Part shown: positions 2,747 through 58,200 of the stretch, piece after piece
Numbering within the stretch: position 1 is the stretch's first letter
Layout: every line of letters starts with the position of its first letter
Origin: Candidatus Magasanikiibacteriota bacterium
GTDB taxonomy: Bacteria; Patescibacteriota; Patescibacteriia; Magasanikbacterales; UBA922
NCBI GenBank assembly: GCA_003510435.1
Contig: DOMK01000020.1
Span: forward strand, 59,523-123,522
Direction: 5' to 3'
DNA: 64,000 nt
Notes under the pieces: model-generated
Told to the model about the DNA's origin: nothing
Database searches by the model: none
What the model saw: the letters and a program-made list of their open reading frames with translations, nothing else
Translations under genes and position numbers: made by a program

Positions 2747-3019
2747 ATGGAAAGAAAAGGTGATTTTCGAATCAGTTTGTCTAGTTTAGGTAAATTAGAT
2801 AGTAAAGTTCAAAAAAATAAAGAGAGAACGACTGGTGCCAGAAGAATAGATTTAAATGAACTAAGAAAAAAAGGTAGACCGGCTAGTCGACAGGAGGATG
2901 CTTTAACAAAGATTTTAGATAGACACCGAGAAAGACAGGAACATCTGAAAGCATTTGGAGATCCATCAGCTGATTCTGTGGATGGTGATGTAGATGATGA
3001 AAAAGAAAAGGGCGAATAG
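2747..3019 (+). CDS. small highly charged hypothetical protein (the start is probably the internal Met)
   Basis: The ORF is Lys/Arg/Glu-rich. A -10-like TATAAT at about 2728 lies inside the longer annotated ORF, which favours the internal start. Confidence 0.35.
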   Translation: MERKGDFRISLSSLGKLDSKVQKNKERTTGARRIDLNELRKKGRPASRQEDALTKILDRHRERQEHLKAFGDPSADSVDGDVDDEKEKGE

Positions 3020-3058
3020 ACCCTTTTTTTATTATCTTTTTTAGTCTACAATATAAGA

Positions 3059-3943
3059 ATGAAAGAATACTTTTGGTTTAATATAATGTGTTTATCAATC
3101 TCAGTGTTTTGTGGACTGGGAACTTTTTATGTTATAAATGTTCAAAATGTTGTAAATGATATAAATGAATTGAATATTGCGTTATCAATTAATGAAGAAA
3201 ATATAGAGATTGTCCCGATGAAATACGGGATCCCGTACTCTGTCGGGAAAAAATTTAAAGATTATTCGACTACAACAGTTAAAAATCTTTCAGTTATTCA
3301 ATCTTCTACACCTGACATTGTGAGTACGACAAAAAATGAAAAAATTATTGAACTTCCTAAACAATATAACCTCGCTGTCCCATTCACTTCTCAAGCGCCA
3401 GAAAAAAATTGGGATGAACCATGGCAAGATGCTTGTGAGGAAGCCTCACTTTTGATGCTAGATGCTTATTATAAAAATTATAAATTAAGTCCATTGTTTG
3501 CTAAAGATGAAATTTTAAAAATGGTAAAGTGGGAAGAAAATAAAGGCTGGGGGAATAGTATTGAAATAGAAAAAGTAAAACTGATGGCGGAAGAGTATTT
3601 TCACTTGAGCACTCTAGCACTTGAGCACTCTAGCAGTCGACAAATTAAAATAATTGAAAATCCAACAGTTGATGATATTAAAAAATCGATTGCCAATGAT
3701 AATCCAGTGTTAGTTGTGGCTGATGGAAAAGTTTTACCTAATTCTCATTTTCAGAATGGCGGGCCAGATTATCATGCTTTGATTATTCGTGGATATACGG
3801 AAAGTAAATTTATTACCAATGATCCTGGAACACAATTTGGCGAAGCGTTTGAATATGAATACAGTGATTTGATGAATGCAATAAGAGACTGGAATAATGG
3901 AGATGTGAAGAATGGACGCAGAGTAGTTTTGGTGATAGAATAG
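3059..3943 (+). CDS. membrane-anchored peptidase C39-like (papain-fold) domain protein
   Basis: It has an N-terminal TM helix, a Cys motif 'WQDACEEASLLML' and a downstream 'DYHALIIRGY...NDPG' His region typical of Peptidase_C39_2. Confidence 0.55.
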   Translation: MKEYFWFNIMCLSISVFCGLGTFYVINVQNVVNDINELNIALSINEENIEIVPMKYGIPYSVGKKFKDYSTTTVKNLSVIQSSTPDIVSTTKNEKIIELPKQYNLAVPFTSQAPEKNWDEPWQDACEEASLLMLDAYYKNYKLSPLFAKDEILKMVKWEENKGWGNSIEIEKVKLMAEEYFHLSTLALEHSSSRQIKIIENPTVDDIKKSIANDNPVLVVADGKVLPNSHFQNGGPDYHALIIRGYTESKFITNDPGTQFGEAFEYEYSDLMNAIRDWNNGDVKNGRRVVLVIE

Positions 3944-8933: not shown

Positions 8934-9153
8934 TATAAGAAGTTATCCACATCTCGTCTTGCTTATTTTTTAGCGTTTTAGTAAGATAAAACAGATAGAA
9001 ACAATATGAATTTACAAAATAACAATCAAAATATATATAAGAACTGGAGTATCAAGTTGTCTGTTGTCGTACGCAATCTTTTTGTGTACGTTTTGTATTC
9101 TAGGGTGCTATATATAAATGGTTGTTATAATGATTAAAAAGATATTTATATAA

Positions 9154-9190
9154 TAAAAAAGCACTCTAGAAAACTAGAGTGTTTTAATTT
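9154..9190. terminator. bidirectional terminator hairpin (gcactctag aaaa ctagagtg)
   Basis: A 9-bp perfect stem is flanked by an A-run on the 5' side and a T-run on the 3' side. Confidence 0.6.
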
Positions 9191-9361
9191 GAAACACGGA
9201 TTATACGGATTGAAAAGGATTGTACGGAGGGTAAGTAAAATTGTTCTTTATATAAGGAGTAAATAGGGTAGCGAAAATAGAATGTTTTGGGGCTAGAATT
9301 TTTTCTAAGTAATTGGAAAATATTTTGGCCCCAGAACGACTGGGGTTTTGTAGGAGGCGGC

Positions 9362-9484
9362 CATGTCGGCTGTCGTTAATGGAGAACTCAGGGCGCACGT
9401 GGACATGCTCGCGGCACAGAACGAGGGACTGCGGTTTCTCATGAGCCAGTTTCACTGGCTGACCGCGTTCGAGCTCTGGCTCGC
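9362..9484 (+). CDS. GC-rich 40-aa ORF with a strong Shine-Dalgarno site (candidate foreign small gene)
   Basis: AGGAGG lies 6 nt upstream of the ATG. It encodes 'MSAVVNGELRAHVDMLAAQNEGLRFLMSQFHWLTAFELWLADR', and the codon third positions are GC-rich, unlike the host. Confidence 0.3.
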
Positions 9485-9611
9485 CGACCGGTGAGTCAGA
9501 AGCAGCGCGAGCTGCACGTGCGGGAGGGCTTCGCTACCCAACCCACGTATTATTTATTTTATAAAAAGTAAATAGTACGTGTGTGGGATGTTATCTTTGG
9601 AGGGAAAATGA

Positions 9612-9800
9612 ATGGGTAAACAGGAATGGGTGTGCCCGAGCTGTGGTTGCGATGTCAAGAAGAAGAATACTCGGGTTTGTCCCGAGTGTGGAGCTGGTCG
9701 GTACGACAGAAAGCGCATACCTCAGATAGGTGTGTCGCAGGCGATCACGAGCTTTTTCGAGATTGCCTATCCTCCTGAAGCTAGGAGGAAGAAGTCGTGA
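9612..9800 (+). CDS. small zinc-ribbon protein (CPSCG...CPECG) in a GC-rich segment
   Basis: A GGAGGG Shine-Dalgarno site is present. Two CxxC pairs are present and codon usage is GC-rich. Confidence 0.4.
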   Translation: MGKQEWVCPSCGCDVKKKNTRVCPECGAGRYDRKRIPQIGVSQAITSFFEIAYPPEARRKKS

Positions 9801-9931
9801 CGACAGCCAAGGGACGGCGGGAATACAGACTTGTGGTCTTTCCCGCCGTCCCAGATGAAAACAAAACCGCCAAGAACTTGAGAGAAAAAAATATTGTTCT
9901 TTCAAGGAGGTAATGGCGGTTTTGTTTTAAA

Positions 9932-9960
9932 TTTGACAAACGTTTTTTATAATCGTATAA
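9932..9960 (+). promoter_or_regulatory. strong orphan promoter TTGACA, 17 bp, TATAAT
   Basis: Both hexamers are perfect consensus. No CDS follows; the tRNA-Val promoter lies about 190 nt downstream. Confidence 0.6.
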
Positions 9961-9966
9961 TATATT

Positions 9967-10145
9967 TGATCCTGATAGCTGTGGCAGTTCATATCATATC
10001 CGCAAATATTCATACTTGGGAGATCTATATTTCTCCAGCCTGTGGGCTAGAGGTGCGATCACCCACCTGATTTTCAGGGGTATGGATATGTCCTGCCTCG
10101 GGCTGATGGATCCAAAAAGACAATCTTAAACAGGTTGTTTTTTTA
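9967..10145 (+). ncRNA. candidate small RNA (about 180 nt) between the orphan promoter and a T-run
   Basis: A consensus promoter lies upstream. The segment is mixed-GC with several short hairpins (gtggg...cccac, cctga ttt tcagg) and ends in gttgttttttt. Confidence 0.3.
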
Positions 10146-10146
10146 A

Positions 10147-10175
10147 CTTGACTTTTGGAATTAATTAGTGTATTA
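10147..10175 (+). promoter_or_regulatory. tRNA-Val promoter TTGACTTTTGG...TAGTGTATTAT
   Basis: TTGACT, a 17-bp spacer and TATTAT are present. The same extended motif recurs at the rpsU promoter. Confidence 0.55.
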
Positions 10176-10191
10176 TATTTTTGCTTTTTAT

Positions 10192-10265
10192 GGACCCGTA
10201 GCTCAGTTGGTTAGAGCGCTACATTGACATTGTAGAGGTCAGAAGTTCAACTCTTCTCGGGTCTA
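10192..10265 (+). tRNA. tRNA-Val (anticodon GAC)
   Basis: It folds as a cloverleaf: GGACCCG acceptor, GCTC/GAGC D-stem, anticodon loop TTGACAT, T-loop TTCAACT. CCA is not encoded. Confidence 0.85.
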
Positions 10266-10306
10266 CTAGGGCTTCGCTACGCTACGCCCTATAAATAATT
10301 TACTAC

Positions 10307-10335
10307 TTGAAAAAAAAATGGAAGTGTAGTATAAT
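10307..10335 (+). promoter_or_regulatory. tRNA-Ile promoter TTGAAA, 17 bp, TATAAT
   Basis: The hexamers lie directly upstream of tRNA-Ile. Confidence 0.5.
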
Positions 10336-10351
10336 CGTTTTACTTTTTTAT

Positions 10352-10428
10352 GGGCAATTAGCTCAGTTGGCTAGAGCGCAACACTGATAATGTTGAGGTC
10401 CCAGGTTCGATTCCTGGATTGCCCACCA
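10352..10428 (+). tRNA. tRNA-Ile (anticodon GAT), CCA encoded
   Basis: It has acceptor GGGCAAT/ATTGCCC, anticodon loop CTGATAA and T-loop TTCGATT, and ends ACCA. Confidence 0.85.
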
Positions 10429-10539
10429 AACACAGTTGGACAAGACTGTGTTTTAATTTACAAAAAAGATGCTTAGTAATGAGATTCTCGGAGCGAAGCG
10501 AAGATCCCGATTTATATCGGGGCTGGATTGCCCACCAAG

Positions 10540-10577
10540 CCGTCCAAAATAGGACGGTTTTAAATTTGATTTTTTTG
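10540..10577 (+). terminator. rho-independent terminator (ccgtcc aaaata ggacgg plus a long T-run)
   Basis: A 6-bp GC-rich stem is followed by ttttaaatttgattttttt. Confidence 0.6.
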
Positions 10578-10618
10578 GAAAATAGGTATATAATTGATTT
10601 TACATAATTTTATTTTTT

Positions 10619-11266
10619 ATGATACCTAACACTGTTGAAGAGCAGACAGAGGAACAAGAAAAAATTGAATCCTTACCAGAAAAAGAAGAAGTGGTAAGCG
10701 AAGTAGAAAAAGGTTTTTTGGCCAAGACTAGCCTTTTCTTTTTGGAATTAATCAAGATTGTTATTTTGGCGGCGATTACGATTGGCCTGGTACGTTATTT
10801 TTTGTTCAAACCATTTTATGTAAAAGGTCAATCAATGGAACCAAATTTTTATGAAAGTGATTACCTTATTATAGATGAATTATCTTATCGTTTTCGTGAA
10901 CCCGAGCGGGGGGAGGTTGTGGTTTTTCGCGCTCCGGTTGATAAAAAAGAATTTTATCTAAAACGAATCTTAGGTTTACCAGGAGAGAGAGTGAAAGTTG
11001 GTGAGGGAAAAGTGGTTGTTTATAATGATAATTACCCACAAGGAATTTTGGTAGAAGAAAATTATTTAACCGAAACTACGCCTGGTTCTACTATTACTAC
11101 TCTTGGTTCTGATCAATATTTTGTCATGGGTGACAATCGTGATGCTAGCTATGATTCTCGTCGGTTTGGACCAATTGAAAAAACAGATTTTGTTGGTCGA
11201 GCTTGGGTAAGAGGTTGGCCATTTAGTCGCTTGAGTGCGTTTGAAGTCCCAAAATATAATTTTTAA
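10619..11266 (+). CDS. lepB: signal peptidase I
   Basis: It has 'GQSMEPNF' (catalytic Ser), 'LKRILGLPGE' and 'YFVMGDNRDASYDSR' (GDNR box). Confidence 0.9.
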   Translation: MIPNTVEEQTEEQEKIESLPEKEEVVSEVEKGFLAKTSLFFLELIKIVILAAITIGLVRYFLFKPFYVKGQSMEPNFYESDYLIIDELSYRFREPERGEVVVFRAPVDKKEFYLKRILGLPGERVKVGEGKVVVYNDNYPQGILVEENYLTETTPGSTITTLGSDQYFVMGDNRDASYDSRRFGPIEKTDFVGRAWVRGWPFSRLSAFEVPKYNF

Positions 11267-11423
11267 TATTAATCACTAATTTTGACTCGCCCAGGGTAGG
11301 GAGAAATCCCTTTTCTAAGCAACACAAGATGCTTATATAATACACAAACTTTAATGTTAATCACATTGATTTTAAAAGGGATCCCTCTCCGCCCTGGGCG
11401 GATCGGGATTAACAAAAAAATTT

Positions 11424-15907: not shown

Positions 15908-18900
15908 ATGTTTAATTTTAAGAAAAAATTAATTTTTATATTATTTTCTCTAATTATAGTGATGGGTACTTTTGTTTTTGTTTCCAATGTTTTTGCCCAA
16001 TCAGCTGATGTTTTTGGTTTGAAGCCGGTAGGTGATTCGATTGCCCTCGGTGGACAGGATATAAGAATAACAATTGCAAAGATAATAAGAGTGATTCTAG
16101 GTTTATTGGGTATAATCGCCATGGGAATTGTTTTGTATGGCGGTTTTGTATATATGACATCTGGTGGTAATGAAGAAAAGGTTGCTCAGGCAAAAAAAAT
16201 TATTATTAATGGCATAATTGGCTTAGCGATTATTCTTTCAGCCTTTTCTATTGCGAGTTTTATTATTAATAGTTTGGCTGGGGCAACTATAAATAAAAAT
16301 CCTCCTAATGACAACTTGTCGTGTTTGGATTCTACTTATCGTGAGGAACATCCTGCTAAGTGTGATAAATGTATTAAATGGCCACAGACATGTTGTGAAG
16401 AGTATTTTATTGTCAAAAGTATTACACCTGTCACAAATGCCACCAACATGAATAATGTGGTGATTAGGGTTTTGTTTAGCAAAAAATTGAGTAGTGACTA
16501 TACGAGTAATACAAAGTTACGTGAAGTCGTTCAGGTGTTTGGTTCATCAGGAACTAATATTACTAATAAATTTGATTTTGTTTTAAAAGATGGCTTGTTG
16601 GTAGAATTGACACCAAATAATAATTCTGGTCTGAAATGTGAAGGTACGACTAATTGTTTAGCTGATGGCAATTACACTATAAAAGTAAATGAAAATACCA
16701 AATCTATAAATAATGAACCTCTTACTACGGATGTGGAATTTTGTGGTGAGTATCCTTTGGAAGGAAAATTTATTACTAATCACGAAACTAAGGGTTTTTA
16801 TTTTGATGGGGTAAATGATTATATTGAAGTGACTAGTACAGACATGAATATTACGACGGGTGATTTTACTGTGGCAGTTTGGGCAAAATCAGTTAAGTTT
16901 ATACAAAGATCCTCAATAATTAATAAAGGAGCATATTTTCCAGAAAAAAATATTGGTTATAATATTGGTTTTATAAGTAATCCCAAAAATGTTTGGTTTG
17001 TAGTGAGTGACGGTCCAGCCTCTAGTCCGGCTAACACTCTATCTAGAACATATGATACTTCTACGAGTAGTCGAAGTGGAGTTTTTGATTGGGCACATTT
17101 TGTTCTAGTTAAAACTGGTAATCAAATAAAAGCTTACACAAATGGCGTTTTGGTTGGTACAGCTGGTGGGGTAGATAGTTCAATTTCAAATGTATCTAAT
17201 TTTTTAATTGGGAAAAGTATTGTTAGTAATAAATTTTTTAATGGTTATATTGATGATGTTTATTTTTATAGAAGAGCTTTGAATGATACAGAAATAACTA
17301 GTCTTTTTCAAAAAAATGCTAGTATCCCTAGAGATACAGCTTTGGTAGGTGAATGGAAGTTTGATAATGTCGTGGGTAATAAAGTAATAGATAGTTCTGG
17401 TAGAAATAACAATGCCGTAGTCTATGGCGCGACTTGGGTAGAGGGTACCTCAGGTGGCACATCAGCCCAGACGACTTATAATTTAGGTTTTGATGGAATA
17501 GATGATTATATAGAAGTGTCAGATAATAGTGTTTTAGATTTGACAGATGCCATCTCGGTTTCTACTTGGGTAAAATCTCGTGCTGAAGGGTATATCGTGG
17601 CCAAGGATCCCTATGTGTGGCAGACAGTGGCAAACAATTATATTCCTTTTATGGGGCCTTGGAATTGGGTACAAAATGAAATGCAAGGTACCAGATTTAC
17701 TCCAAAAAAAGATGGTACTGTTGATAAATTATGCAAATATTCAAAGGGCAACCAGACTTTAAAATTGTGGGATAGTTCATTTAATGAATTAGCTTCAGTC
17801 CAATCTTTAAATACTGTTGATGAGTGGAAATGTGAGACAATAACTTCACCTGTTTTAGTTCAAGCAAATAAACTTTATTATGTAGGCATTTGTTGTAATG
17901 ATGGTATCAATTGTATTCGTAGGGCAGAGTCTGGTAATGTGGTTTACCCACTATTAGTTGGAGATGTTGAAATGGGGCGGTCGTTTTCTGTTTCTAATAA
18001 TTCTGGCTGTGCCCTGTCTGGTTTACCAGGGACTTCAGCTAATGCTTTTTTTGTAGATATTAATTTTGTGCCAAGTGGTAGTACACCAGTGGCAGAAATT
18101 TGTAATGATAATCTTGATAATGATGGCGATGGTAAGCTTGACTGTTCAGATCCAGATTGTGTTGGTAATTCGGCCTGTCAAACTACAAAAACCAATGTGC
18201 CCTTTGCCCTTAGTACAATTGGTAAAGGACAATTTTTAATTAAAAAAGATGGGGTAGACCATGTGGTAAATTCCTCAGTAAATATAAATGATAATTTATG
18301 GCATCATGTGGTGGCTACTTATAGTAAGAGCGGTAGCGGTGAAATGAAAATTTATGTGGATGGAAATTTGACTGGCACGGCGACTGGTTATACTGGTGGT
18401 ATGCCCACAAACAATGACCCATTATTTATTGGTCGATCTTATGATCCAGCCCAAACGACAAATTATTTTAAAGGTAATATCCAAGATCTAAAAATTTACA
18501 ATCGAGCCTTGTCTTTGTCTGAGGTTGGTCAACTTTTTAATAAACAAACAGTTCCAACCGGTTTGATTTCCAGTTGGGACTTTAATCTTGGTAGTGGCAC
18601 CAGTCTTTCTGATAATGAAAGAAGAAATATTGGTACATTTAAAGGTGGGGTACAGTGGTCATCAGTGACAATTCCGGCTTCTGGCCCAAGTTCTAATGTT
18701 GGGGTCAAAGATTCTCAATCACCAGAAGTTAGTAGTTTAGCTGTAGACAACCTTATTACTACTAGTACTTATCGTTTGCGAGGGGGCAAGGATTATGATC
18801 TTACTACCCAGATTGCTGATGAAAGTGGTTTTGGTTATTTGCATATAGAAGTAGAAAAAACTAAAGATCATGAAGGCAAAATTGTTTCTCCAGCGCAAAA

Positions 18901-21900
18901 AATGATGGCCACTGATTATTATTATGGTCCGTCAGTAGCTCAGGGTTCAAATGCGCCATTTTCTGCACCATACCAATTTAGTCATCCTTTAAATTTTAAA
19001 AATAGTAGTACCACTATTTATACAGCTGGTCTTTATACTGTAAGAGTAACGGTTTATGATATTGATAATAATAGAACTATAAAGACATTAATAGTTAGTT
19101 TAATTCCAGAAAGTTGTACCAATGGTCAATTGGATCCAGGTGAAGTGACTTCTGATGAGGGTGGAGTATGTGGTCGTGGAGAAGGTGAAAGTTGTGATAC
19201 AGATAATGATTGTAGTTATAGTCTTAGATGTATTGATCACTTGGGTGATGGAAATAAAGTCTGTACAGCTTATCCAATGATAGAAGGAGTTAGTCCAATG
19301 ATGTCTGGAGCTGGCGGTAATTGGATCACTGTCTATGGTAAGCATTTTGGTGAAGAATCGGGTAATATTCAATTTGCGGTTGGTAATCACCCTACTACTT
19401 CTACGGGAAGCTGGGCAAATGCCAATTTGGCGGATTGTGAACAAGATGTGTGGCATGATAAGTGGGTGATTGTGCAGGTGCCAGAAGATAATACTACTTT
19501 ACCTCTATATAGTACTAGTACAATTAAATTGCAAACCACCTCAACTATTCAAGTTGGTGGTGTGTATATAAAACCTTATGATACAACGGTAGATGATTGG
19601 GGATTGGACAGTGGCCAACCTGGTTTATTTACAAAAAATACTGAAGTTTATCCTGGTTTGTGTAGTGTTGGTATAATCAATCCAATTATTGACCCAGAGA
19701 CAGAACTAGTTGTTGTAGAAGCTGGTGAAAATCGTGGTTTGCCTGGAGATGAAATTGAGGCGATTGGGCAAAATCTTGGTGATGATAGAAATGGGGGAAA
19801 ATTATTATTTGGTGGCGACAATGTAAATACCCAAGTTTCAGATTGGAATGATACTAACATTTTAAGCGTAGTGCCAGAATTAACAGCCGAGTGGTATGGA
19901 GTTTATGCTCAGATGGGTTCAACTGGAGGATCGAAAAAAAGTAATGCAGTGCCGTTTCATGTTTTGGATGAGGGCTTTTTGCGAGCACCAATTATAGAAA
20001 GTATTGATCCACCAACAACTACACCAGGCAGTTATATTACAATTTATGGTAAAAGATTTGGTAAACAAGTTGGTCAATATAAAGGCCGGGTATTTTTGTC
20101 AGTCTCTAAAACAGAAGCCAAAAATTGTTTGGATGGTACACCAGAGGTAGATAAATGTTTAGAATTATCTGATGCTGGTTTTCCACAAGAATGCAGTGAG
20201 ACTTGGTTTAATGATCACGTAATTGTTGGCATTCCAAAAATTATTCCCCAGATATTTAGAGATAATTATCAAAATACTTTATTGACTCAAGGTGAAGTGG
20301 CAACTGATCTTTTGTCTTCGGCTGGTTTGGGTAGTGAACATATAGTTAATTCGTATCATAATTATGTAAAAATAAATGATTCTGAAACGTTTTTATTAAT
20401 GGGTAGAAGTTTAGAAGTTGATGTTGTTTTGGATGATTTAGCGACAAGTACAGGTCAATTTTCTAAAAATTCAACACAATGGAAAAAAAATAGGTATGTG
20501 TTGATCAAATCACCTACTAGTACTGATACGTATGCTGATTTTAAAATGAGAATAGAACACACAGTGGACGTGGCAGATGGTGCTGTAAAAAGAACATTGT
20601 ATGTTGAAAGTGATACCGTAAGAGTTTATAGCATGATTCAACCTAATTATTCAGTGTCTTTTCCTCTTCAAAATGATGTAAAAAGATTTAAATTTAAAAT
20701 AAAACCAGGTTATGATGGTGCTGATAAAAAACTTTTTAGTTATTTATCCACCTCCACTGATCCAAATGTGGAACCGGGTACCCCTTCTTTAGCTAATACT
20801 AGTGATAGATTATTTACAGCATTGGTTAGTAGTACCAAACCATTATTTTTAGGTTACAATACTGTCATTGGTTCCAATAATGTCTATACTTTATTTGGTA
20901 TAATAAAAAGTTTAAAAATAAATAATGATGCTTTGGTGGATGATCCCAATGCTTATTTCCGTCCCTACATTATATTAGAGAGCAGTGCCGAAGAACCTCT
21001 AAATACTTCTGGCAATGATCAATATACCATTATTAATGGTGATCCAGCACCAGGGATTTGTCTTATTAGTCCAGCTAGTGGCCCAGCCCCTTTGCCTGTC
21101 GGAGAATTTTTAACACTCTATGGTAATAATTTTCCTTTAGATCCTTTTGTTTATTTTAGAGGTCCAAATTCTGATCCAAATAATGTTAGTAGTACTGGTG
21201 GTTGGTTGGAAGCAGAAGACGTTAGTTTAATTCCTTTGGCTGGTGGTGGACAGATGATAACCACTACTATTCCTTATAGTGAAACTATTTTATTAGGTGA
21301 AGGTCCACACACTGTAAAAGTTAAGAAAAATACTACCCCAATTGCTGTAAGTAATGGTTTGGATTATTTGGTGATAGATTGTACCAAAGCTAGTAAAGAA
21401 GAATCCACTAGAATGGAATCTCGTTATCAATGTTGTACAGCTGGTAAAGATCTTGGTAAATGGAAATTGGATAGTAGTGTTTGCGATGGTCAAGTACGCG
21501 AGGCTGGCTATGTATGGCGGTTTACGACTGGTATTATAAAATTACCTCCTTATGTAGTAGAACAGTGTGATCAAGAACATTGGAATGATCCAGGTGTGAC
21601 TTTGAAATTTCCTTCGCCAGTGCCATGGATAGGTTGGAAGAGTGGAGACTCAGTTTGTCTCAATGCCTCAGTGGCAGTTTATTTTAGCCGGTCAATGGAT
21701 GAAAATACTATAAATTCTAGTACAGTAAAAATGTACAAGTGTACGGCCACAGAAGACAATACGACTGGTTGTACAACTGCAATTCCTCTGGAAGATGATG
21801 AAATTATTCTTAGTTCACAAGTTTTGTATATTAGACAAAATCCACCTTCTAGTGATTTAACTTCTAGCACCTGGTATCAAGTTAAATTGTCCAAGGACAT

Positions 21901-24900
21901 TACTTCTTATGAAGAACAACAGCAAGTTGGAACAACCACTATAATAAGAGAACTATTAAAACCAACCGAACCTTGTGATAACGGTGATTATGCTTATTGT
22001 TATTATTTCAAAACTGGTACTGGTCAGTGTAATTTAGAGGGTGTCTATATCAATCCTTTGTATCATAGAGCGCGGTTGCTTGGAATTGTCCAAAGTCCTT
22101 TCTTCCCCTATATAATGACTTTGGAAGGTATAAATAATCCACCTCATCCTTATTATTATTTATTATGGGGCAAGGCTAATCAGCCGTGTACTATCATAAA
22201 TGTGGATGGTTTGGGTTGGGTTTGGGATTCTATAGATGATACCAAAGCTGTGTCAATAAATGCACCAAAGTCAGGTCAATACACAGACAGTAGAGCTAAA
22301 ATTAGAGCTTTACAAAATACTGCTCCAGGCACAGTTGATATTACAGCTGAAGCTACAACTACAGTGACAATTGATATTGATGGACAGACTGTGACAAGTA
22401 CAGAACACTTTTTGGCCTCTACAACTTTAAAGGTAGATTTGTATGATCCACAAGTGATTGAATGGTGGCCAGATTGTATTAATTCTTGTGCCAACGGTAC
22501 TGTTGGGGTACGGTTTAATATGCCGATGGTGACTAATACTTATCCTGGTGGTTTAATTTTAGAAAAATGTAGTGATGAATTTTGTGATACGATTGTTAAT
22601 AGTATTCCGGTGACGACCACAATCGCCAGTATAGAGATTTATGAAGTAGCACCAATAAATAATTTATTACCAAATACCTGGTATCGGGTGACGGTGACAG
22701 GGACTATTTTTTCTATTGGCAGAATTGACGCCAGTGGTAATGTGTTAGCCAATGGTGATCCTTTGATTCCGCATGTTTGGCGGTTTAGAACAAAGATGGT
22801 TGATGAAATTTGTATTTTGGACAAAGCTAGTTTATATCCAGATCCTTTTGTGGCGCATTTTATAGATGAAAAAACTATATATAATGTTATGCCGATTAGT
22901 GCACCAAACCAGTGCAATCCAAATGGACAAAAATTAAATCCTTGGAATTATGGTTGGCAATGGGACGTGGTGGCAACTTCAACCTTAACTTCAAATTACG
23001 ACGTGGCTACCTCAACTCATTTTGAAGAAGCCGGTACTTTTAAACCTTATTGTGATTTTGCTTGTTTATTGGCTGGTAGTAATTATCGCGACGATGTTCG
23101 TCAGCCATTTATTTGTGGCAATGGTGTTATAGAGCCAGGTGAAGATTGTGATATTGCCACTACGACCACATCGACTGATTCCAATCCTGCCCAGGTTCAT
23201 GAAATTGCTGGACAGAGTTGTAATTTGTCTTGTCTGCGTCCAGGTAATCCTGATATTGGTACTGGCACAAATCAATGTGGCAATGGTACTACAGAATATA
23301 TTTATGGCGAAGAATGCGATACAGCCAAACCAAGTGAAATAAATTATTGTAAGCCAAATTGTACTTGGGAAGGCTCAAGTCAATTGGTACAAAATCGGTC
23401 TAACTTGGTATCCCAGTGTGGTAGTGGTAGTGTGACCAAGGGTGAAGATTGTGATTTGGGTATTACTAGTACTACCATCCCAGAAGGAAAAATTGGTTGC
23501 TCAGACAAATGTCTTCACACCGGTACAATTTTGTCACAAATGTGGTGTGATGTTAGTACCAATACTATGCAGGTGGGGACTACCACTCGGTCAATAAATG
23601 AAATTGGCGAATGTAATCATGCGGCCAGTATTTGTGGTAATAGTGTTTTGGAATCAGGTGAAGAGTGTGAATTTGTTTATAATAGTAATGTTTGGCAACA
23701 AGAAAGAATTAAAATTTTTGGTGAGGCGGGTGATTTCCAAATTGTGACCAGTACAGTCGTGACATCAACCAAGAATATTTGTTCAAATAAATGTTTATTA
23801 GAAAATATTTGTGGACAGAATTATATTGACTTGAACACCGCCTTTACTACGAGTTCTTTCCGTTGTGCTTATCCGGGTGAAGGTTGTAGAAATGATTGTC
23901 ATATTCGTGGAGCGTCTGTGGCTTATACCTTACCTTCTATGTGTGGAGACACTGTAGATGGCGTAGGTGAATATCCAATGTGTGAGTTAAGGACTTCTAC
24001 AGCTTTGGGACAAAAGCCTTTACAAATAGTGACTGCGATTGGTGAAGGAGCAGTTGATCCAGAAACCAATTCACAAAATGCGCGGATCAAAGCTACAGCG
24101 ATAAATTATAAGAATAGTGATGGGAGTGTAGAAACTTTAATTATTCCAGTTGACGGCTTTGGTACTTATGGTTTGTATTGTGGTTATACAGAATATACTA
24201 CGGCCGATGCTAATGGTAATTATAATGATTGTCCAGGTGATAGTGTCATGGTTGGGGCTGGTTCTGATATGTGTTGTCGACCACGTCTGTATCGTCAAGA
24301 AGCTTACCCAGCCGATGGGACTGGCCTGCTTGGTGCTAGTGAAGAAGGGGTTTGTCGCAATACTTATATTGAGGCCAAATTTAGGGGTGAGATTGATCCA
24401 GATACTATTGAGAATAATGCCTACATCGTTAGTGGTCATGCTAGCGGGCACACTTGTTTGTCTACAGAAATTCTTTTTTCTAATCAAATTACTTCTACTT
24501 TGTTGGCTTATGAACCAGGTGAACAAATACCAGGTGGTTTTTGGTCCAAATTGTGGTATCACATAAAAACTTTCTTTGTTCGTTTATTTGCTGGCAATGT
24601 TTATGCTAGTCTTTTTACTGTATCAGATCCAGTTTGGTGTGCTTCTCCATTAAAATACCAAACAAATTATGAATATAATCAAGTGGGTGATGCCAAAGCT
24701 TCTACTACCACTATTTCTTTTTATATAAATAATTTACTTGAACCAGAAACTAATTATGTTGTATTTTTACGTGGAGGAGCCGAAGGCATAAAGGACACTA
24801 ATGGAGTTGGTATTAGAGGAGCGGATGATATTGATTCTGGGGCTGGTACTCTATATCAATTAAAAGATTCTTGGTTATTCAAAACTAACACTGAAATTTG

Positions 24901-27900
24901 TACGATTGATAATTTGTTAGTTTTGCCTAGTGACTATTTATTCCAAACACCAAATACTACTAGTACTTTTCATGTTTTGGCTTTGACTGATACCTTACAA
25001 AAAATAGTCCCAACAAATGAATATAATTGGGAATGGGTTTGGGGTCCACAAAATAATGAACTATTTTCTATTCCAGCGGTGGGCTATCCAGGTGATTCAG
25101 ACTATGCAGTTTTGGCTTCCACCAATTTGGAAGGTCATGTTTATGCTGTAGTGCAGGCTGAGATAGAAGATCTTACTAGACAAGCACCAGTTGATGGATT
25201 AGATCCATTACCAGTGGATCCAGATTTTGGTACGCAAAATCATACGACAGCTTATTTCAATCTTACCTCTAGTTTTTGTGAAAATCCTTGGCCACCAGTG
25301 GTTGGTGGTGTTTGGACACCTTTTGAAGATTCAGATTATAATTTTAGTTTCAATTATTGTGCTGATGCTGGTTTGACTGATAATACAACTGATGATTTGC
25401 CATATTTAGATGTGGTAGAAATGGAAAACAAAGTGTGTAATGGTAGTAATATTAGTTGTAATACTGACGCTGATTGTCCAGGTTTATTATATACTGATCA
25501 AAATTGGAATGCGCGTTTTTATGCTGTACCAGATCCAGATAAGACTGGTTTTTGTGGTTTTGTCGTTCCTGTTTCTTCTCCAGATTCACAAATCTATATT
25601 GGTCAAACTGGACCAGTGGCTTGTGCTGGTGATGCTATGTGTAAAAGTAATAGTACTTTGGTGACTTGGGCTAATGCTAAAATTGTTAGCTTACCAGCAG
25701 GGTACAATCTTTCAGTAGCCAATCATTTGCTTTGTGCTGGTATAGCCAATTCTTCACCAGCCCAGTGTGTGGTAGATCCTAATAAAGAAGTATTAAAAAA
25801 ATATTTATTTGTCGCTGATAAAAATGATGATGCGATCGGTCTCCAGATTTTACGCAATCCAGATAGATTGTCGGCTTTGAATTGGTTTAGAGACAAATTT
25901 AAACTAGCCACTACCAATCCACAAGTCATAGAGCTAAATGGTTATGATGCGATTACTGATGGAGAAAATTATTATGTCAATGCTTTGAATGCTGATACAG
26001 CCAATCATCATGTTTATAATAATATTTATCAGATTAGTTTGAACAAAGGCATGCAAGCCAATACTAAAAATGTTTTTGATCAGATTTTTAATAATTTTAA
26101 ATTTAATGCTAATTTATTAGATGTTCGCATGTGTGGTTATGCTGATGGGTCAATTGATTTGAGTCGAAATACAAAATGTAGTAGTGATCTGGATTGTTAT
26201 AATGCTGTAAATGTTGGTCATTGTGGAATAGGTAGTGGCGACTGGAATGGAGTGAATTTTGTTGGTAGCAATTTAAATAGTCTTTCTGTTTTATCAGATA
26301 ATGAACTCTGGGTTTCTGATTATAATGGCAAACTGTATTATACTAATAATGGTGGAAATACTTGGATAAATGAGGCTACTTCAACAGCTATTTTATCTGG
26401 GAAATATTTTAAAAAGGTTGATTTTGTGGATAGTAGCCATGGTTGGGCAGTGGACAATAATGGAATTGTTTTTAAGAAAACCGTAGATACTTGGCAAAAT
26501 TTAGGTTCAGTGACTAGTACGTCTGGTTTTGAATATAGAGATGCATTTTTTATTAATACTAATAATGCTTGGGTGGTGGCTGGTAAATCTGGTAATGCTA
26601 AAAGTAGAGTGTTTAAAACTTTAGATGGTGGTAGTGTTTGGCAAGAAGAACCTGTGTATTATTATCATTCCAATGGTGTAACTTTGCTGGACGCAACCAC
26701 CTTTGGGCCTAGTAAAATATTCTTCACCCCAGATAGTCAAGGGTGGGGTATTGGTTCGAGAATGGCCGGATCTGGTACTGATGTTTATGGTATAATTTTT
26801 AAGAGAGATAATGATCAAAATCGTTGGTTGGTAGTTTCTACAACCAACTACCTAGCTCTTGTAAACCAATTTAATGACATATATTTTGCCAATGACAGTA
26901 TTGGCTTTATAGTAGGTAATAATGGTTTGGTTTTAAAAACAACTGATGCTGGTAATAACTGGCTAGATATTAGCACTAGTAGTTTTAGTGATATTAATTT
27001 AACAGCAGTTCATTTTTATGATGCCAATAAAGGTGTAATGGTTGGTAATAAGACTGGTGATACAAAAGGTTATGTTTTAAAAACTCTAGATGGCGGAGCG
27101 ACTTGGGAAAAATATCATTTACCAGTCAATACTGGTGAAATGAGGGATGCCTTTATTAATAGCAGTACCAGCATGACTGTTTTAGGTGCTAATTATATTT
27201 TAAACAATGACACGGAAGAACGAATTTGTCGAAGTGATAGTGATTGCTTCAATGGCAATACTTGTTATGGTTATGAAGAAAAATTTTGCGTGGCACCAAA
27301 AGCCAAATTATTAAACGATTGGACTAGAGTACGCGATGTGGCTGACATTCAAAAAGGGATTGAAGCTTATAATTTTGTCAAAGGCTATTATCCAGATCTG
27401 AAAAAAATTCATACGTCACCATCAGATCCAAATGAAGCGCAATTTTCTTCGTATTTGCCTGGCTATGTGACCTCACGCTGGTCATCTTGGGGTGCTTTTG
27501 GTTCTAAGGTGCTTGGTTTGTCTGGGATTGCCTCTGATCCATTAAATATTTGGCAAAATTGTCCAGCGAATTTTGAACAGACTACTTGTTGGGATGAAAC
27601 TAATCTTAGTTATTATTGTGCCTATCCGTCCAGTGTTTATGAATATAAGTTTGTGTCAACTAGTCCCGGTTATTCTCTCAATATTCCCTTTGAATATCTG
27701 ACAGTTGTTGATAATGGTGAAGACGGAGATATTCTGGGTGATATGTTGCCAAATACCTCTACCATTCAGACTAATCGGGCTTGTACACCAGGCCAGATAG
27801 AGAGTCTGCTTGGTGATCATTGTGGAGATGGTATGGTCACTCCTAGCAACAATGAACAGTGTGATCCAGTTGGGTCTCTTGGTGCTTTGGTTGTTAGTAG

Positions 27901-30900
27901 CACCCACAATCGTTATTCTGCACGACAAAAATGCAATTTACAGTGCCAATGGGAATTAGGAGAGTGGGCTGTGGGTGATGTGTGTGGTAATGGTGATACA
28001 GAAGGTAATGAGGCTTGTGATGATGGAGATAAAAATGGTACCTATGGTATGTGTGCTGGCCCAAATAGTAGATATAAAACTAATATTGTGGATGCAAATG
28101 GTAATGTTATCCATACTATTAATAGTCTAGTCGGAGAGTGTCAGGGTTTACACCAAGAATATTGTGGTGATAATGTTTTACAAAGTCAGGAATTGTGTGA
28201 AAAGAAAGATGATGTACTGGTATCTTACAGTTTAAATTTGGGGACATGTGGCAAAGACGCTAGTAGGAGTTGTTCTTTAGATGATCAATGTTTTAGTGCT
28301 TTGTCTTTTGATGGTAATAACGATTCGCTGTCTTCAGAACAAGACATTCCGCTTGGTAATGGTCCATTTACTATGGAATTTTGGTTTAAACAAAGTGAAG
28401 TTTTGAGAACAGATTCAGAGCCGATTGTAGCTTTTCATAGAGGTAATAGTCCAGAAGATCCTGATAATATGAAGGCTTATTTTGCTCTAGAAATTGGTAG
28501 AAATAAAAATATTGGTTTTGGGCAAGCTGGTTTTATGAATAGAACTGGTAAATATTCTTATGTAAAGACTAATGATAATGTTTTTTATTTAAACAATTGG
28601 TTTCATATTGCTTTAATGAGTGATGGAACTGGTAAAGTTAGTATTTTTGTTAATGGAGTAGAATTGGCTTCAGTAAGTAATTTTGTCACTAGCGATAATT
28701 TGGCAGTAGATAAAATATATATTGGCAATCCACCTTATTTTTTACAATATGGTTTGACCGGAGTAGTGGATGAATTTAAAATTCATAATCAAGTGATAGA
28801 TCCTGCTCTTTTTAGAACTTATTATGATAATACAGATCTTATTAGTGAGTATCTCGATTCAGCGGTTGGCTGGCATCTTGATGAAGGTATGGGTAGTGAT
28901 ATTTATAATTATAAAAATAGTACTTTTGACGCTTCAATAAGTGGGGCAAAATGGGTGACGCCAGATATTTTTACTGATACTTGTGGTAATATTTCAAAAA
29001 AATATACTTATTTGCGTTATGGCGACCAGTGGAGAGGTGTGGCTGTTTCAGCCACTCAATGCAGTAGTGGCAGTCCGGCTGTAAAAGCTATTTGTAAAAT
29101 TCTTAGAACGGCAATTCATCTTGGTGTAACATCTTTGGTAAATGGCGGTGATTATAAAGATAATTATTGTAGTAATAGTCTAGATAATTTGGTTTTGTGT
29201 AAACAAAGTAGTGATTGTGTTGTGCCGACCACCACTGCATATATATTTACAGAAAATGAATTTTTGAATAGTGATTTGACTGGTATGATGACGTCTTTTA
29301 CCAATGCCACTACCTCTCTGGGCACTTGTGCTCCTTTCCCAACCGGAAAGAAATATGGCGCACCATATAATTTTTATAAAGATTTATCTTGCGCTTGGAA
29401 CTGTCAAAACTATGGTTCATACTGTGGTGATGGTATGAGAGATGCTGGCTATGGTGAGGAGTGTGATGATACCAATACTGTAAATGATGATGGTTGCAAT
29501 ATTTATTGTAAAACACAAGGTACTGTTCCACCTACCACTACTATTGTTACGGAGCCAGAGTCTGATTTGACTTGTGGAAATAATATAAAAGATAAAGGCG
29601 AAGAATGTGACGAGGGGGTTAATAATGGTATTGAATGTAGTATTTCTTATGGCAAGGGTTGTACTTATTGTGCATCTGATTGTAAAAAGAAAATTGTTAA
29701 AGATCCAATTAATTTTTGTGGTAATGGACAGATTGATTTAATAGGTTATGACAAGACTGCTAATGAACCAATATATGAAGCTTGTGATGTAAAAAATGGT
29801 GTTGTCCAGACTAGTAGTAGTGGCCATATTGTAGATGCTTATTGTTACAATTCACAAATGCCTGGCAAAAATAAATTTTTCGCTGGTAGTTTTAGTTGTG
29901 AAAGTAGTTGTACCAAGTTAGTAGATAAGTGTTTTGATTGTGGGGCATTTAATAGAAAATTAGAGGACAATGGTACTGCTGTGCCTAGATTTGACATTTT
30001 TAGTGTTTTGACACCGACTACGACTGCTAAAATTACTTTTAATAATCACACTGATGATAGAAAATTGAAGTTTGGTTATTTTGTCCCTGGTACCAATGTG
30101 TCTAGTAATGGTACCTCTACTCTAAATTATTCTCATGATTTAGATGTTAGTTCTACCAATCCTATTAGTTTGGGAGATGTTAATATAGAAACCAATCCAA
30201 TTTGTAATAATTATTCTAATCCTACGCCACTAGCCACCAGTTCTTATTATTGGTTTGAAGGTGATAATACTTATTCAAGTGCTGCAAATTTTGCACTTAT
30301 TCCTAATAATCGTTTATTCTATTACCCAGTTAATAATGAAGCTGATATAGTAAAAAATCAGTATATAGTAGCACCTAATCCACCCGAAGGTAGTTTCCGG
30401 GTGGTGGTGAAGTGGTCTGATAAATATGTTCCAGATACGGAAGTCAAATTTCAAGGTATAGTTTATAATTCAGGTTTGGACGAAAAGCAGACTATAAACT
30501 ATGTGGATGCCAATTTATCAACAAGTAAAGATTTGGCTGATATTACTGGTAGCGCTAATAGGGTGTGTAATAGTAATAATTATGAAGTAGATTGTATTGG
30601 TAAACAATATGATGGGGTCTATGTTCATGGGCAGGGTGATTTTAATGGTACTCATGTTCAGTCATTCACCATTGATACCTATGCTCGCGGTTTTGATACC
30701 AAGAATTATGCTTTTGTAGTTGACCAGTGGGGTAAAGTAAAACGTATTTCAGGTCAGACAGATTCTAGCCCAATTTCGCCATATATGAATAGTGATTTGA
30801 CAGTAGAAGTCTATGAACACAAGAGCGATGGTGGCAATATTTATCATCCCGATCATACGTATACAATCAAGAATGAAACCACTGCTGATCCTAAGGCTGA

Positions 30901-50710: not shown

Positions 50711-50837
50711 AATAAATAGTTATAAAGTTATAATAATGTTTGCGATGCTAATATACTAATTCATACTAATAATACTAATGTCGTATATTTCGTAATTAGT
50801 ATTATTAGTACCATTCGTATATTGGTATCGTGTTTCG

Positions 50838-51237
50838 TGGAGATGCCGGGAATTGAACCCGGGTCTAGGCGGGCTACCCCTACAGTCTACATGTGTAGCT
50901 GATTTGGTATTTCACTCGTGGCTAGAAAATCAGCAAAATAACTACGAGCTGAAGCTTGGATTACTTTCGGAAAAAAATCTCAAGCGAAATTTTTGACCTA
51001 CACTCAATAATTTACACCGCCTAACCCCTATTGAGTATCAGAGGGGCGATGGTAGAAGCACTTAAGCGACTACAGAAGCAAATGTAGGAACACTAAAGGC
51101 AGAAGCCAAAGCATTCTTTACTTTGCTAACAAAGTTTGCATTTATAATTTGTACTTTGGTATTTACGAGGAAAAAGTACAACCTCGACATGCTTGTAAAA
51201 GATAACATGGGTCCACCCATCGAACCCTGTCATCCCC
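50838..51237 (-). ncRNA. ssrA: tmRNA (ssrA)
   Basis: On the minus strand the 5' end reads GGGGAUGACAGGGUUCGAUGGG. The 3' end has the T-arm GGGUUCAAUUCCCGG plus CAUCUCCA pairing with the 5' GGGGAUG. An internal 'CCUCGUAAAU' is followed by a tag ORF ...ALASAFSVPTFASVVA then UAA. It is adjacent to smpB. Confidence 0.8.
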
Positions 51238-55230: not shown

Positions 55231-58200
55231 ATGTCTGAAGAAGACAAAAAACGTGGTAAAGTTAGAAGAGATGGTAAGGTAATAGATGTTAAACCAACTC
55301 CGGGTGGTGATTTTGAATTATCTGCAGATAGAGAATCTGAGCTGCGAGTTGAATTGGAAAAATTGAAAAATGATCTGAAAGATAGAATCCCTGATATTGA
55401 CAGTGAAATATTAAAATTGCATGGTTCGTTAAATAGAGTAAAAACAGAAAAAAGTTTGGACTTATTTACTCAATTTAGTACTGCATTAAATGTATTAAGA
55501 CAGGAATTACGAAAGTTAGAACAAGAAATTTATGCAAATGAAATGATTGCAACTTATGAAAAAGATATTATTGCTTTGGATAAGAAATTAAAAAAACTAG
55601 CTAAACAAGTTGGCGTTAGTGCTTCTGAACTCATACTCAAATTAGCCAATACTAGTATTTCAGAACTAAAAAATGCTTTATTTCAAGTCGGTGATAAACC
55701 CGATGATCCTGATGTTGCAGGCCAGTTTGATGCCCTGCTTAGAAAAGCCAAAGAGTCAGTAAATGAAGCTATAAAGAAACAAAAGGAAAAAGGTGAATGG
55801 AAAGTAAATACTGATGAAGAAGTGAAAGCTATTTGGGAACAAGCTGAAACTAGAGATGCAAAGCAGGTTATAGCTTTGATCGGAGAAACTCAACAAACTT
55901 TGGAGAGAAATAAAAAAGACGGCGAAGGCAGACTAAATGGTGCAGAAAAAATTTCTGATATACAAGAAACCGTCATGACTCATGACGGTGATTTGGTTTA
56001 TCTACCAGAAAAAGGTCATGCCATTATTGTGGGTGACACCCATGGAGATGAAAGTTCTATTCAATCAATCTTAGTGGAAACAGATTTTATTGCGCGCGTA
56101 GAAAGACATGAACCAGTGTATTTAGTCTTTACTGGGGACTATGTTGATCGCGGGCCAAAGCAATTGGAAAATATTCAAGCGTTAATGGAATTGTATAATG
56201 AATATCCTGAGAATGTAATTTTGTTAAGAGGGAATCATGAACATGCTGGCTCACCTCAAATGCAAGATCCGGATTTATTTAATATAAAGGCCATGGATGC
56301 CTATGGCACTTTTGCAACAGAAATTAGAGATAAATACAACGAATTTTATGATAATTTGCCAATTAATTTAGTGACAAAGAAAGGCTTGTTGATCACCCAC
56401 GGCGGGATAGCAGAAGATCCTGAAGTAAAAAGAGCCGGAGATTTGACGAGATTAAGTAATGACCAGAAAATGCAAATGATGTGGACAGATCCAACAGAAA
56501 TTTCTGATGATTTTGTTTACATTCCCAAAAATAAAGATGGTGAGACAAAAAGTAGAGGTAGTTATGGTCAAGGCGATGATGAGAAAAAAGTTAAAAAATT
56601 TGGTAAAGGTGTTTTTGAAAAATCTTTACAAGCTGTTGGTGCCAAGGCTATGATGCGTTCACATCAGGCTGACGATAGTTTTAAAGATAATGGTTTTAAA
56701 AGACAATTTGGTGACAAATTAGTGACAGTATTTTCTACTACATCTGGACAGCGTGGTTACAAACCAGCCTATATGGAGGTAGATTTGAGTGCAGAATTAA
56801 CAGATTTTTCTACAGCTGATACGGCAGTGAACGGTCCAGTGCAACTAAGAAATGTTGGTGATACTAGACCACATTTGTTAAAAGATGAAGATTTGATAGA
56901 GTTGGAAGAAAGTGATGGAGTTTTGGGTGAAGATGACGAACCTCCAATAGTTAATACTCCACCAACTGAAGATGATCCAAAAAAATGGTGGAGATGGTTG
57001 TCTTTACATTATCATGTGGCTAAAACAAATAGTCATGAATTAAATTCAGCCATAAATACTTGTGGTGATAAAAATTTGGCTGGATTGAAAAGAATTTACG
57101 AAATAATTTTGGCTTGTGGAGACGATTTTGCCGAAGCTGGCAGACAAGCTTTGGAGTTTGCGCACAGCCTGCCTAAACCAGGTGTAGGTGAGAGTGGTGC
57201 AGATTCTTCTGATCATTTATCAGAGGATGACCAAAGTAAGTGGCAAGAAATAAAAGCTGTAAGTGGAGATGTAAAAATTGTAGATTGTTTACGCTTGTTT
57301 TCTAGTATAGAAAAAACTTATAAATTATTTACTTTATTTAAAAAAGATGGAAAAAGATTTTCTGATTTTGTGATCCAATGGGATAATCTTCCAGATCGTT
57401 CAGATATTAGTTTGGTAGTTGAAATGCTAGACAGTCATACAAAAAATCCTAAACTTTATTATGATGATCCTGATTCTAGATTAGAGATAGATGTTAGTAA
57501 TTTACAAGAGATGTTTGGTTCAATGGTTTTGTTTACTGAGTTTGCCCCGAGTGATTTGGACAGTCGGAAGAGATTTTGTGAAGAAATACCAAAAAAAGTA
57601 AATGATCTATATGAAAAAATATTTAGTCAGGCAGTAATTGATATACACGAAGTTGATTATGGTGTTCATGCTGTATCCGATCCAGCAGGAAATCTTAGAG
57701 TAAAAAATCAAGTCTTGCAAGAATTGAGTGCTGACATACTAAAAATTGATATAATTACTATTACATTTTTACATCAATTTCTTCTTCAGATGAATGAAAA
57801 GATTGGAAAAAATATTCAAGATGAGGGTGTTTATTATATGGAGGCAAACAAAAGAATTGAAGAGATTTTTAAAGATAAACGAGCAGATTTAGAGAAACTG
57901 AGGAAAAAAGTTGGAGGTGAGGAAGATGAAGCTGAAGCAAGATTGACAAAGCGAAAAGCTGAACTAGCCACGGCTTTGGGGGTGAGTTTCCCTAATCCAG
58001 CTGAAGTAAAACTTTTAGAAGATTTTCCTGATGATCGGGTTGATATTTTGGCACTGTTTTCTAAGGCTCTGGAAAGAGATTATACACAAATAAGAGCCTG
58101 GACAGAATTAAAAAATCATGAAAAGGTGAAAGATTTTTTTGCCTTAGGACAACTTATAGAAATCACTAAGGTTTGTGATGTTACCGCTGGTACAGCCCAT

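Follow-up and report, generated by a model that had tools for sequence, protein, structure and literature searches.

A probable divergent 6S RNA gene beside tRNA-Val and tRNA-Ile in a Candidatus Magasanikbacteria bacterium

We analysed a stretch of 64 kb of DNA (hereafter the window; all positions are counted from its first letter) and found within it what is probably an ssrS-type gene for 6S RNA, in a bacterium of Candidatus Magasanikbacteria (CPR/Patescibacteria). 6S RNA is an open-promoter mimic that sequesters the sigma-70/sigma-A RNA polymerase holoenzyme and comes free once this enzyme copies the bulge and the inner closing stem into a short product RNA (PMC8414754, PMC12005410). The RNA described here very probably works like, and is, a divergent 6S RNA. 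The original prediction had been of an independent non-coding RNA of about 180 nt, possibly 6S-like, and it is supported by a match to the Rfam family RF00013, by the fold, by covariation among homologues and by a conserved promoter and terminator.

The RNA folds into a rod with an open centre

The features of the RNA and of its neighbourhood are as follows.

9933-9938, + strand: -35 hexamer TTGACA, a 12/12 site in the promoter scan
9956-9961, + strand: -10 hexamer TATAAT, 17-nt spacer to the -35 hexamer
9966-10116, + strand: 6S-like RNA core, as matched by RF00013; the family model R1 matches 9966-10114
9968-10001 with 10078-10112, + strand: closing stem of four helices (MFE and centroid folds)
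9968-10001, + strand: 5' strand of the closing stem, with helices GATCC, TAGCTG, GGCAG and CATATCATATCC (fold, covariation)
10002-10016, + strand: single-stranded 5' central bulge of 15 nt, GCAAATATTCATACT (also written GCAAAUAUUCAUACU)
10017-10065, + strand: apical stem-loop, with a GGG/CCC base, a variable stem and a loop (fold)
10067-10077, + strand: small hairpin CTGA-TTT-TCAG on the 3' side, opposite the bulge (fold, covariation)
10078-10112, + strand: 3' strand of the closing stem (fold, covariation)
10114-10146, + strand: A-tract, hairpin and U-tract resembling an intrinsic terminator (fold; T-run at 10138-10144)
10148-10176, + strand: promoter TTGACT-17-TATTAT, outside the RNA (promoter scan)
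10192-10266, + strand: neighbouring tRNA-Val(GAC), after the 10148-10176 promoter
10307-10335, + strand: neighbouring promoter-like site (promoter scan)
10352-10428, + strand: neighbouring tRNA-Ile(GAU), after the 10307-10335 site
10619-11266: signal peptidase gene lepB (Peptidase_S26)

The core (9966-10116) has a folding energy of -55.4 kcal/mol, with z = -3.1 against shuffles; with the 3' hairpin included (9966-10146) the values are -65.8 kcal/mol and z = -4.4. The MFE and centroid folds agree on the order of the elements: closing stem, 15-nt 5' bulge, 3'-side hairpin and apical stem. Canonical 6S RNA is likewise laid out as a rod with a closing stem, a single-stranded 5' bulge, a hairpin and an apical stem (PMC8414754, PMC12005410). 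The 6S-like central bubble for which the fold was to be inspected is thus present as a bulge at 10002-10016 opposite the hairpin at 10067-10077. The bulge is unpaired in both folds and in the family consensus, and it aligns with the Rfam 6S consensus where the centre of the latter is unpaired. The hairpin corresponds to the CCUG...CAGG hairpin of the same consensus. The apical loop in the window fold is TGTG (10041-10044), inside a conserved C-GUGG stretch of the family alignment. On the 3' side, segment GGGGTATGGATATG (10078-10091) could alternatively pair with the distal part of the 5' bulge. The inner part of the 5' closing strand, at about 9990-10003, is, by analogy with known 6S RNAs, a putative template for a product RNA.

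RF00013 is the only Rfam family that matches the RNA

RF00013 (6S/SsrS) matches 9966-10116 on the + strand over model positions 1-187 of 187, with 38.9 bits. The E-value is 5.6e-6 in a search of 9100-10700 (1.6 kb), or about 2e-4 when scaled to the 64-kb window. The score lies below the curated gathering score of 46.4 bits, so that the RNA falls outside formal Rfam membership; at the gathering thresholds the window yields only three tRNAs and a tmRNA. None of the other families, when all 4227 were searched (including SRP RNA, other 6S-like and Y-RNA-like families), overlaps 9966-10116 at E < 10. The Rfam search proposed with the original prediction therefore leaves 6S as the single family for this stretch. 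The tmRNA gene (50835-51237, - strand) scores 135.7 bits and encodes the tag peptide ANFVSKVKNALASAFSVPTFASVVA.

Residues identical to the RF00013 consensus cluster round the bulge, 5' CCG.AAAU.UU.AUA.U.GGGAG and 3' CACCCACCUG....CAGG; within these blocks, the 5' GGGAG and the 3' CACCCACCUG...CAGG align to identical consensus residues. Three of the homologues described below (L084, L106 and L109) also give full-length RF00013 matches, with 37.7, 35.7 and 35.5 bits, and most homologues tested give no match at E <= 0.1 in a 67-kb search. In the reciprocal direction, the second family model, R2, aligns nearly end-to-end with E. coli ssrS (2992-3158, the gene being at 2984-3166, L121) at only 7.8 bits and E = 3; this coincidence of coordinates, seen post hoc, is suggestive. 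Our search for 6S within this genome covered the 64-kb window, and a canonical second 6S gene may sit elsewhere in the genome.

Homologues preserve the structure by compensatory changes

The RNA was compared by nhmmer with 80 Magasanikbacteria lepB loci, which gave three matches only: L011 (Magasanikbacteria GW2011_GWC2_37_14), L004 and L005. Each of the three has the RNA upstream of tRNA-Val, tRNA-Ile and lepB, and the promoter is TTGACA-17-TATAAT or TATACT, followed after 6 nt by GATCC. A covariance model, R1, was built from these three and the window. Neither R1 nor R2 finds further homologues in the 80 loci, where the region upstream of tRNA-Val mostly holds the 3' end of a coding gene, a terminator and a promoter instead. 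Since synteny alone could not build the family, a DNA pattern was taken from the 3' bulge region and scanned over metagenome contigs, giving 40 loci. On the forward strand R1 matches 35 of the 40 with 37-149 bits, as compared with 23-34 bits on the reverse strand; in the window the scores are 144 bits on + and 25.5 bits on -. With the window, L004, L005 and L011 the forward-strand matches come to 39, of which 31 are distinct, from Magasanikbacteria genomes and metagenomes. R2 added L107, L114 and L117 at 32 bits. The 3' block round the bulge formed part of the search pattern and the 5' block did not; the conservation of the 3' block is thus partly ascertainment, as the homologues were collected by it.

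The refuting outcome named at the outset was an RNA that is not conserved while the flanking tRNAs are. The picture is mixed and does not amount to a refutation: the RNA is absent from this spot at most Magasanikbacteria loci with tRNA-Val, tRNA-Ile and lepB, and it recurs as a conserved unit in many genomes. Loci that carry it usually still have it beside tRNA-Val and tRNA-Ile.

Alignment A5, fitted to the model and holding the 31 distinct sequences, shows standard pairs in 93.1% of 1196 cells, and 28 of its 41 pairs have compensatory changes on both sides. Its covariation score is 0.59 as compared with 0.20 in shuffled alignments (0 of 500 shuffles reach it), and when the partners are slid by 1-3 columns only 39-48% of cells pair. 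Closing helices 1-3 are 90-98% paired, every pair of the two outer helices, 1 and 2, being compensatory. In the apical helices 4 and 5, 11 of 17 pairs are compensatory (8 of 9 pairs covary in the distal apical helix), and the GGG/CCC apical base is invariant in all 31 sequences. The 3' hairpin contains a covarying pair that is AU in 20 and GC in 9 sequences of A5 (10 and 8 in the MAFFT alignment).

Because A5 was fitted to the model, we repeated the test with MAFFT and RNAalifold on 20 sequences. The 27 pairs that this gives, 17 of them compensatory, fall in the outer closing helix, the two apical helices and the 3' hairpin; missing are the middle closing helices, since regions of variable length are misaligned. 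Frequent G-U pairs and the large strand asymmetry of the scores fix the + strand as the strand of the RNA.

We considered whether the RNA might be an undescribed other class of structured small RNA, 6S-like only as a rod with an internal loop. Its partner would then be a different one, such as a protein that is not RNA polymerase, or its role would be tied to the neighbouring tRNA genes. The RF00013 score under the gathering cut-off, the many homologues missed by the 6S model, the non-significant reciprocal search of E. coli ssrS and the persistent linkage to tRNA-Val and tRNA-Ile all speak for such a class. Against it, the 6S match is full-length, significant and placed on the most conserved blocks round the bulge, three further members match 6S independently over their full length, no second Rfam family matches, and the architecture agrees with that of 6S in each feature. 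We regard this alternative as unlikely. A more specific form of it, a CPR-restricted non-6S class with nothing but the rod-with-bulge shape in common with 6S, with genetic coupling to tRNA-Val(GAC)/tRNA-Ile(GAU) and with a partner that is not the housekeeping holoenzyme, seems to us distinctly unlikely. A divergent 6S RNA thus remains the preferred reading.

The RNA lies beside tRNA genes at many loci

Of the 40 homologue loci examined, 18 have the tRNA-Val(GAC)/tRNA-Ile(GAU) pair less than 700 nt away from the RNA; in the closer relatives the distance is 30-680 nt. The pair is co-directional with the RNA in the window and in 12 of the fetched homologue loci, some of them with an identical RNA, and convergent with it in 5; the more divergent homologues lack a nearby tRNA, and many loci have none within 700 nt. 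Read in another way, this association would make the RNA the leader or 5' spacer of a precursor of tRNA-Val and tRNA-Ile, reached by read-through from the strong promoter, whose structure serves processing or stability and has no action in trans. In the window the RNA indeed lies 46-78 nt upstream of tRNA-Val in the same direction, its terminator is AU-rich and was not flagged by the terminator scan, and the arrangement recurs in about ten homologue loci. However, tRNA-Val and tRNA-Ile each have a promoter-like site of their own, strong G+C-rich terminators follow the RNA in homologues, and most Magasanikbacteria carry the tRNA pair without the RNA. The leader is disfavoured by the convergent and tRNA-free loci together with the separate tRNA promoters, and we consider it improbable; an independent 6S-type gene is the reading that we retain.

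The relatives of lepB are 47-73% identical to it and come nearly all from MAGs of Candidatus Magasanikbacteria or Patescibacteria, which places the window in a CPR bacterium. Many of the lepB loci that are 55-73% identical (among L001-L080) carry the title 'uncultured Gammaproteobacteria bacterium', most likely a generic mislabel of third-party MAG assemblies.

Several repeats lie in the same neighbourhood. An exact 16-nt direct repeat, CTGGATTGCCCACCAA, occurs at the 3' end of tRNA-Ile (10414-10429) and at 10523-10538, with about 93 nt between the copies and 109 nt from start to start. It resembles the trace left when a small element integrates at the 3' end of a tRNA, or else the remnant of an att site. 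A G+C-rich motif, AGGGCTTCGCTAC, is found twice, at 9525-9542 (after the first ORF of the GC-rich stretch described below) and at 10268-10285 (directly after tRNA-Val). The lepB-hisS intergenic region holds an imperfect inverted repeat (11277-11411; 46-nt arms, 72% complementary), which shares the motif AAGATGCTTATATAATAC with 9139-9160 and may be a miniature repeat element or a structured RNA. In L060, L066, L068 and L074, from other Magasanikbacteria, tRNA-like sequences upstream of tRNA-Val seem to be interrupted by G+C-rich hairpin-forming inserts (in L060, for example, GGGCGGCTAGCCCTGCCTGCCGGTAGGCAGG...). They could represent tRNA copies that have been interrupted or have decayed, or else small insertion elements.

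A consensus promoter and a terminator-like hairpin delimit a predicted non-coding transcript

The site TTGACA-17-TATAAT (9933-9961) matches the consensus at 12 of 12 positions and is both the sole such site and the top-ranked one in a 4-kb promoter scan. The exact sequence TTGACA-N17-TATAAT occurs three times in the 64-kb window, as compared with 0.04 expected from shuffles, which agrees with the earlier description of this promoter as being as strong as any in the window. Transcription is predicted from sequence to start at about G9968, 7 nt past the -10 hexamer, on the first base of the closing stem. In most homologues the -35 TTGACA is kept at equal distance; their -10 hexamer is TATAAT or TATACT, followed by 6 nt and GATCC. 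The best promoter in most of them has 10-12 of 12 matches and ends 4-5 nt before model position 1.

The primary transcript is predicted to be about 178 nt long, with a core of about 145 nt, and to end at the hairpin and T-run of 10114-10146. This element was not flagged by a simple terminator scan, because its stem is AU-rich with fewer than three G-C pairs. Homologues have a hairpin and a T-run directly after the 3' closing strand, often with a G+C-rich stem, and in most of them a promoter and a terminator flank the RNA. The expected layout of about 180 nt with hairpins and a T-run before a separate tRNA-Val promoter is therefore recovered, as is the absence of an ORF after the promoter: the ORF scan finds downstream of it only ORFs of 22-58 aa with TTG or GTG starts, on both strands. 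A conserved ORF was sought among the homologues and none was found. Since their ORFs vary in strand, frame and length (9-52 aa), we take the RNA element to be non-coding.

AT-rich genomes yield many promoter-like matches (23 in 4 kb, with 10.7 expected), and the site could on that account have arisen by chance, with no functional product behind it. Yet the exact consensus is far in excess of expectation, and promoter, RNA structure and terminator are kept as a unit in 31 distinct sequences; this conservation effectively refutes chance, which we regard as very improbable. A small protein gene, such as the TTG-started ORFs of 37 aa (10016-10129) or 58 aa (9894-10070), both of which exist, is hardly tenable, as their starts are non-ATG with no ribosome-binding site evident in the sequence, homologue ORFs differ from one another as noted, and substitutions keep base pairs, not codons. 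We therefore rejected the coding hypothesis, no frame of the TTG/GTG ORFs being conserved.

Upstream of the promoter, a perfect 15-nt inverted repeat, AAAACAAAACCGCCA / TGGCGGTTTTGTTTT, spans 9858-9928 with 41 nt between its arms and stops 5 nt short of the -35 hexamer. The repeat probably terminates the ORF that precedes it, and it would insulate the 6S promoter. The DNA next to the RNA gene on its upstream side, 9340-9860, has 50-55% G+C in a background of 26-40%. Two ORFs lie here, one of 43 aa (9363-9494), with no Pfam match, between the arms of an imperfect inverted repeat (9249-9275 / 9530-9556), and one of 62 aa (9612-9800), of CxxC...CxxC zinc-ribbon-like type with a weak match to Zn_Ribbon_1 (E 0.009). 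This GC-rich DNA may be foreign or mobile. Searches with blastn and tblastn found no copy of 9340-9930 in any fetched locus, and for this reason we treat it as unrelated to the RNA. Elsewhere in the window there are two giant ORFs, 15908-31735 (5275 aa) and 55231-63171 (2646 aa); very large proteins of this kind are probably common in CPR genomes.

A proposed mode of action and its support

By analogy with characterised 6S RNAs, the RNA would bind polymerase and serve for the synthesis of a product RNA. The rod with its open centre would mimic an open promoter and fill the active-site cleft of the housekeeping sigma-70/sigma-A RNA polymerase holoenzyme, and sequestration of the holoenzyme would damp transcription in the non-growing cell. 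Upon nutrient upshift, the polymerase would take the RNA itself as template. Synthesis of the product RNA would begin at the closing-stem end of the 5' bulge, near ...UAUCCG(A)CAA..., and proceed into the inner closing stem; the product is predicted to start with GCGGAUAUGAU (GCGG or GUCGG). This short product would displace the 3' strand GGGGUAUGGAUAU, which may then pair with the distal 5' bulge AUAUUCAUACU. The new pairing would collapse the bulge and free the polymerase, as does the central bulge collapse helix of B. subtilis 6S-1.

The refolding step was examined with constrained folds. When the inner 5' strand is blocked, most close relatives pair the freed 3' strand with the distal part of the 5' bulge; the pairing is seen in the window, L011, L005, L004, L115, L119, L095, L090 and L094. 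In the window the duplex has -12.0 kcal/mol as compared with -5.5 for shuffled bulges, none of 300 being as good. Over 29 distinct members the duplex energies have a mean z of -1.34, and 34% lie at p < 0.05; as the sequences are related, these figures do not amount to a probability. Column-wise covariation of the collapse helix is not significant (56.5% paired, 54.4% in shuffles), so the alternative helix has per-sequence support in the close relatives of the window only.

Product RNAs typically have a GG dinucleotide at positions 4/5 or 5/6 (PMC8414754). In this family a GG is encoded in part of the members only. It fits those with CCG, such as UAUCCGACAA, which would give GUCGG, and not those with UCUACAA or CUUACAU. 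As GG is not conserved family-wide, we dropped the GG rule as evidence for 6S.

Comparison with known 6S RNAs

Like E. coli 6S (SsrS), the RNA is an independent small gene with a strong sigma-70-type promoter, and the two share the rod, the closing stem, the large 5' bulge, the opposite hairpin, the apical stem and the sequence blocks flanking the bulge. They differ in length, the core here being about 145 nt (the terminator hairpin brings this to about 178 nt) and its apical arm being shorter, in sequence, the R2 similarity to ssrS being not significant, and in genomic setting: E. coli ssrS is upstream of the 5-formyltetrahydrofolate cyclo-ligase gene, whereas the window RNA is beside tRNA-Val and tRNA-Ile. 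6S RNAs are usually given as about 200 nt long (PMC12005410), and the core described here is shorter.

With Bacillus subtilis 6S-1 RNA (BsrA) the RNA shares the hairpin opposite the 5' bulge (PMC8414754). A helix named the central bulge collapse helix belongs to that RNA (PMC12005410). The potential of the freed 3' strand to pair with the 5' bulge resembles that helix, which differs from ours in that ours has support per sequence in close relatives and not by column-wise covariation. The strands that form the B. subtilis helix were reportedly defined by Beckmann et al. in 2012. A further difference concerns the product RNA, whose predicted start here, GCGG or GUCGG, carries a GG that is not family-wide.

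The 6S RNA of Aquifex aeolicus is compact and comes from a condensed genome, an instance of small genomes keeping a shortened 6S (PMC8414754); its likeness to the RNA described here is one of size class only. Ms1 RNA of mycobacteria is about 300 nt long and binds the core enzyme. It is described as a 6S-like RNA that binds RNA polymerase (PMC11077062); on that description, what Ms1 and the RNA described here have in common is being structured RNAs, association with polymerase being known for Ms1. No Rfam family but 6S matches the stretch.

Significance

6S RNA is present in nearly all bacteria (PMC8414754), and its occurrence in a further lineage is what one would expect, not a surprise. A full-text search, outside which most subscription journals lie, returned no paper discussing 6S RNA in CPR, Patescibacteria, Saccharibacteria or Parcubacteria; the sole co-mention of Patescibacteria and 6S found in full text was a paper on mitochondrial SRP that uses each term once. 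What is new is a compact subfamily that default annotation misses and that is linked to the tRNA-Val/tRNA-Ile locus. Routine annotation would leave the RNA unlabelled because the family falls below the Rfam reporting threshold. With our alignment and model the gene could be annotated throughout Patescibacteria, and the Rfam seed could be enlarged. If this is a working 6S RNA, its core of about 145 nt would be useful to define the minimal requirements of an open-promoter mimic, and very small, host-dependent bacteria would retain RNA-based global control of their housekeeping polymerase.
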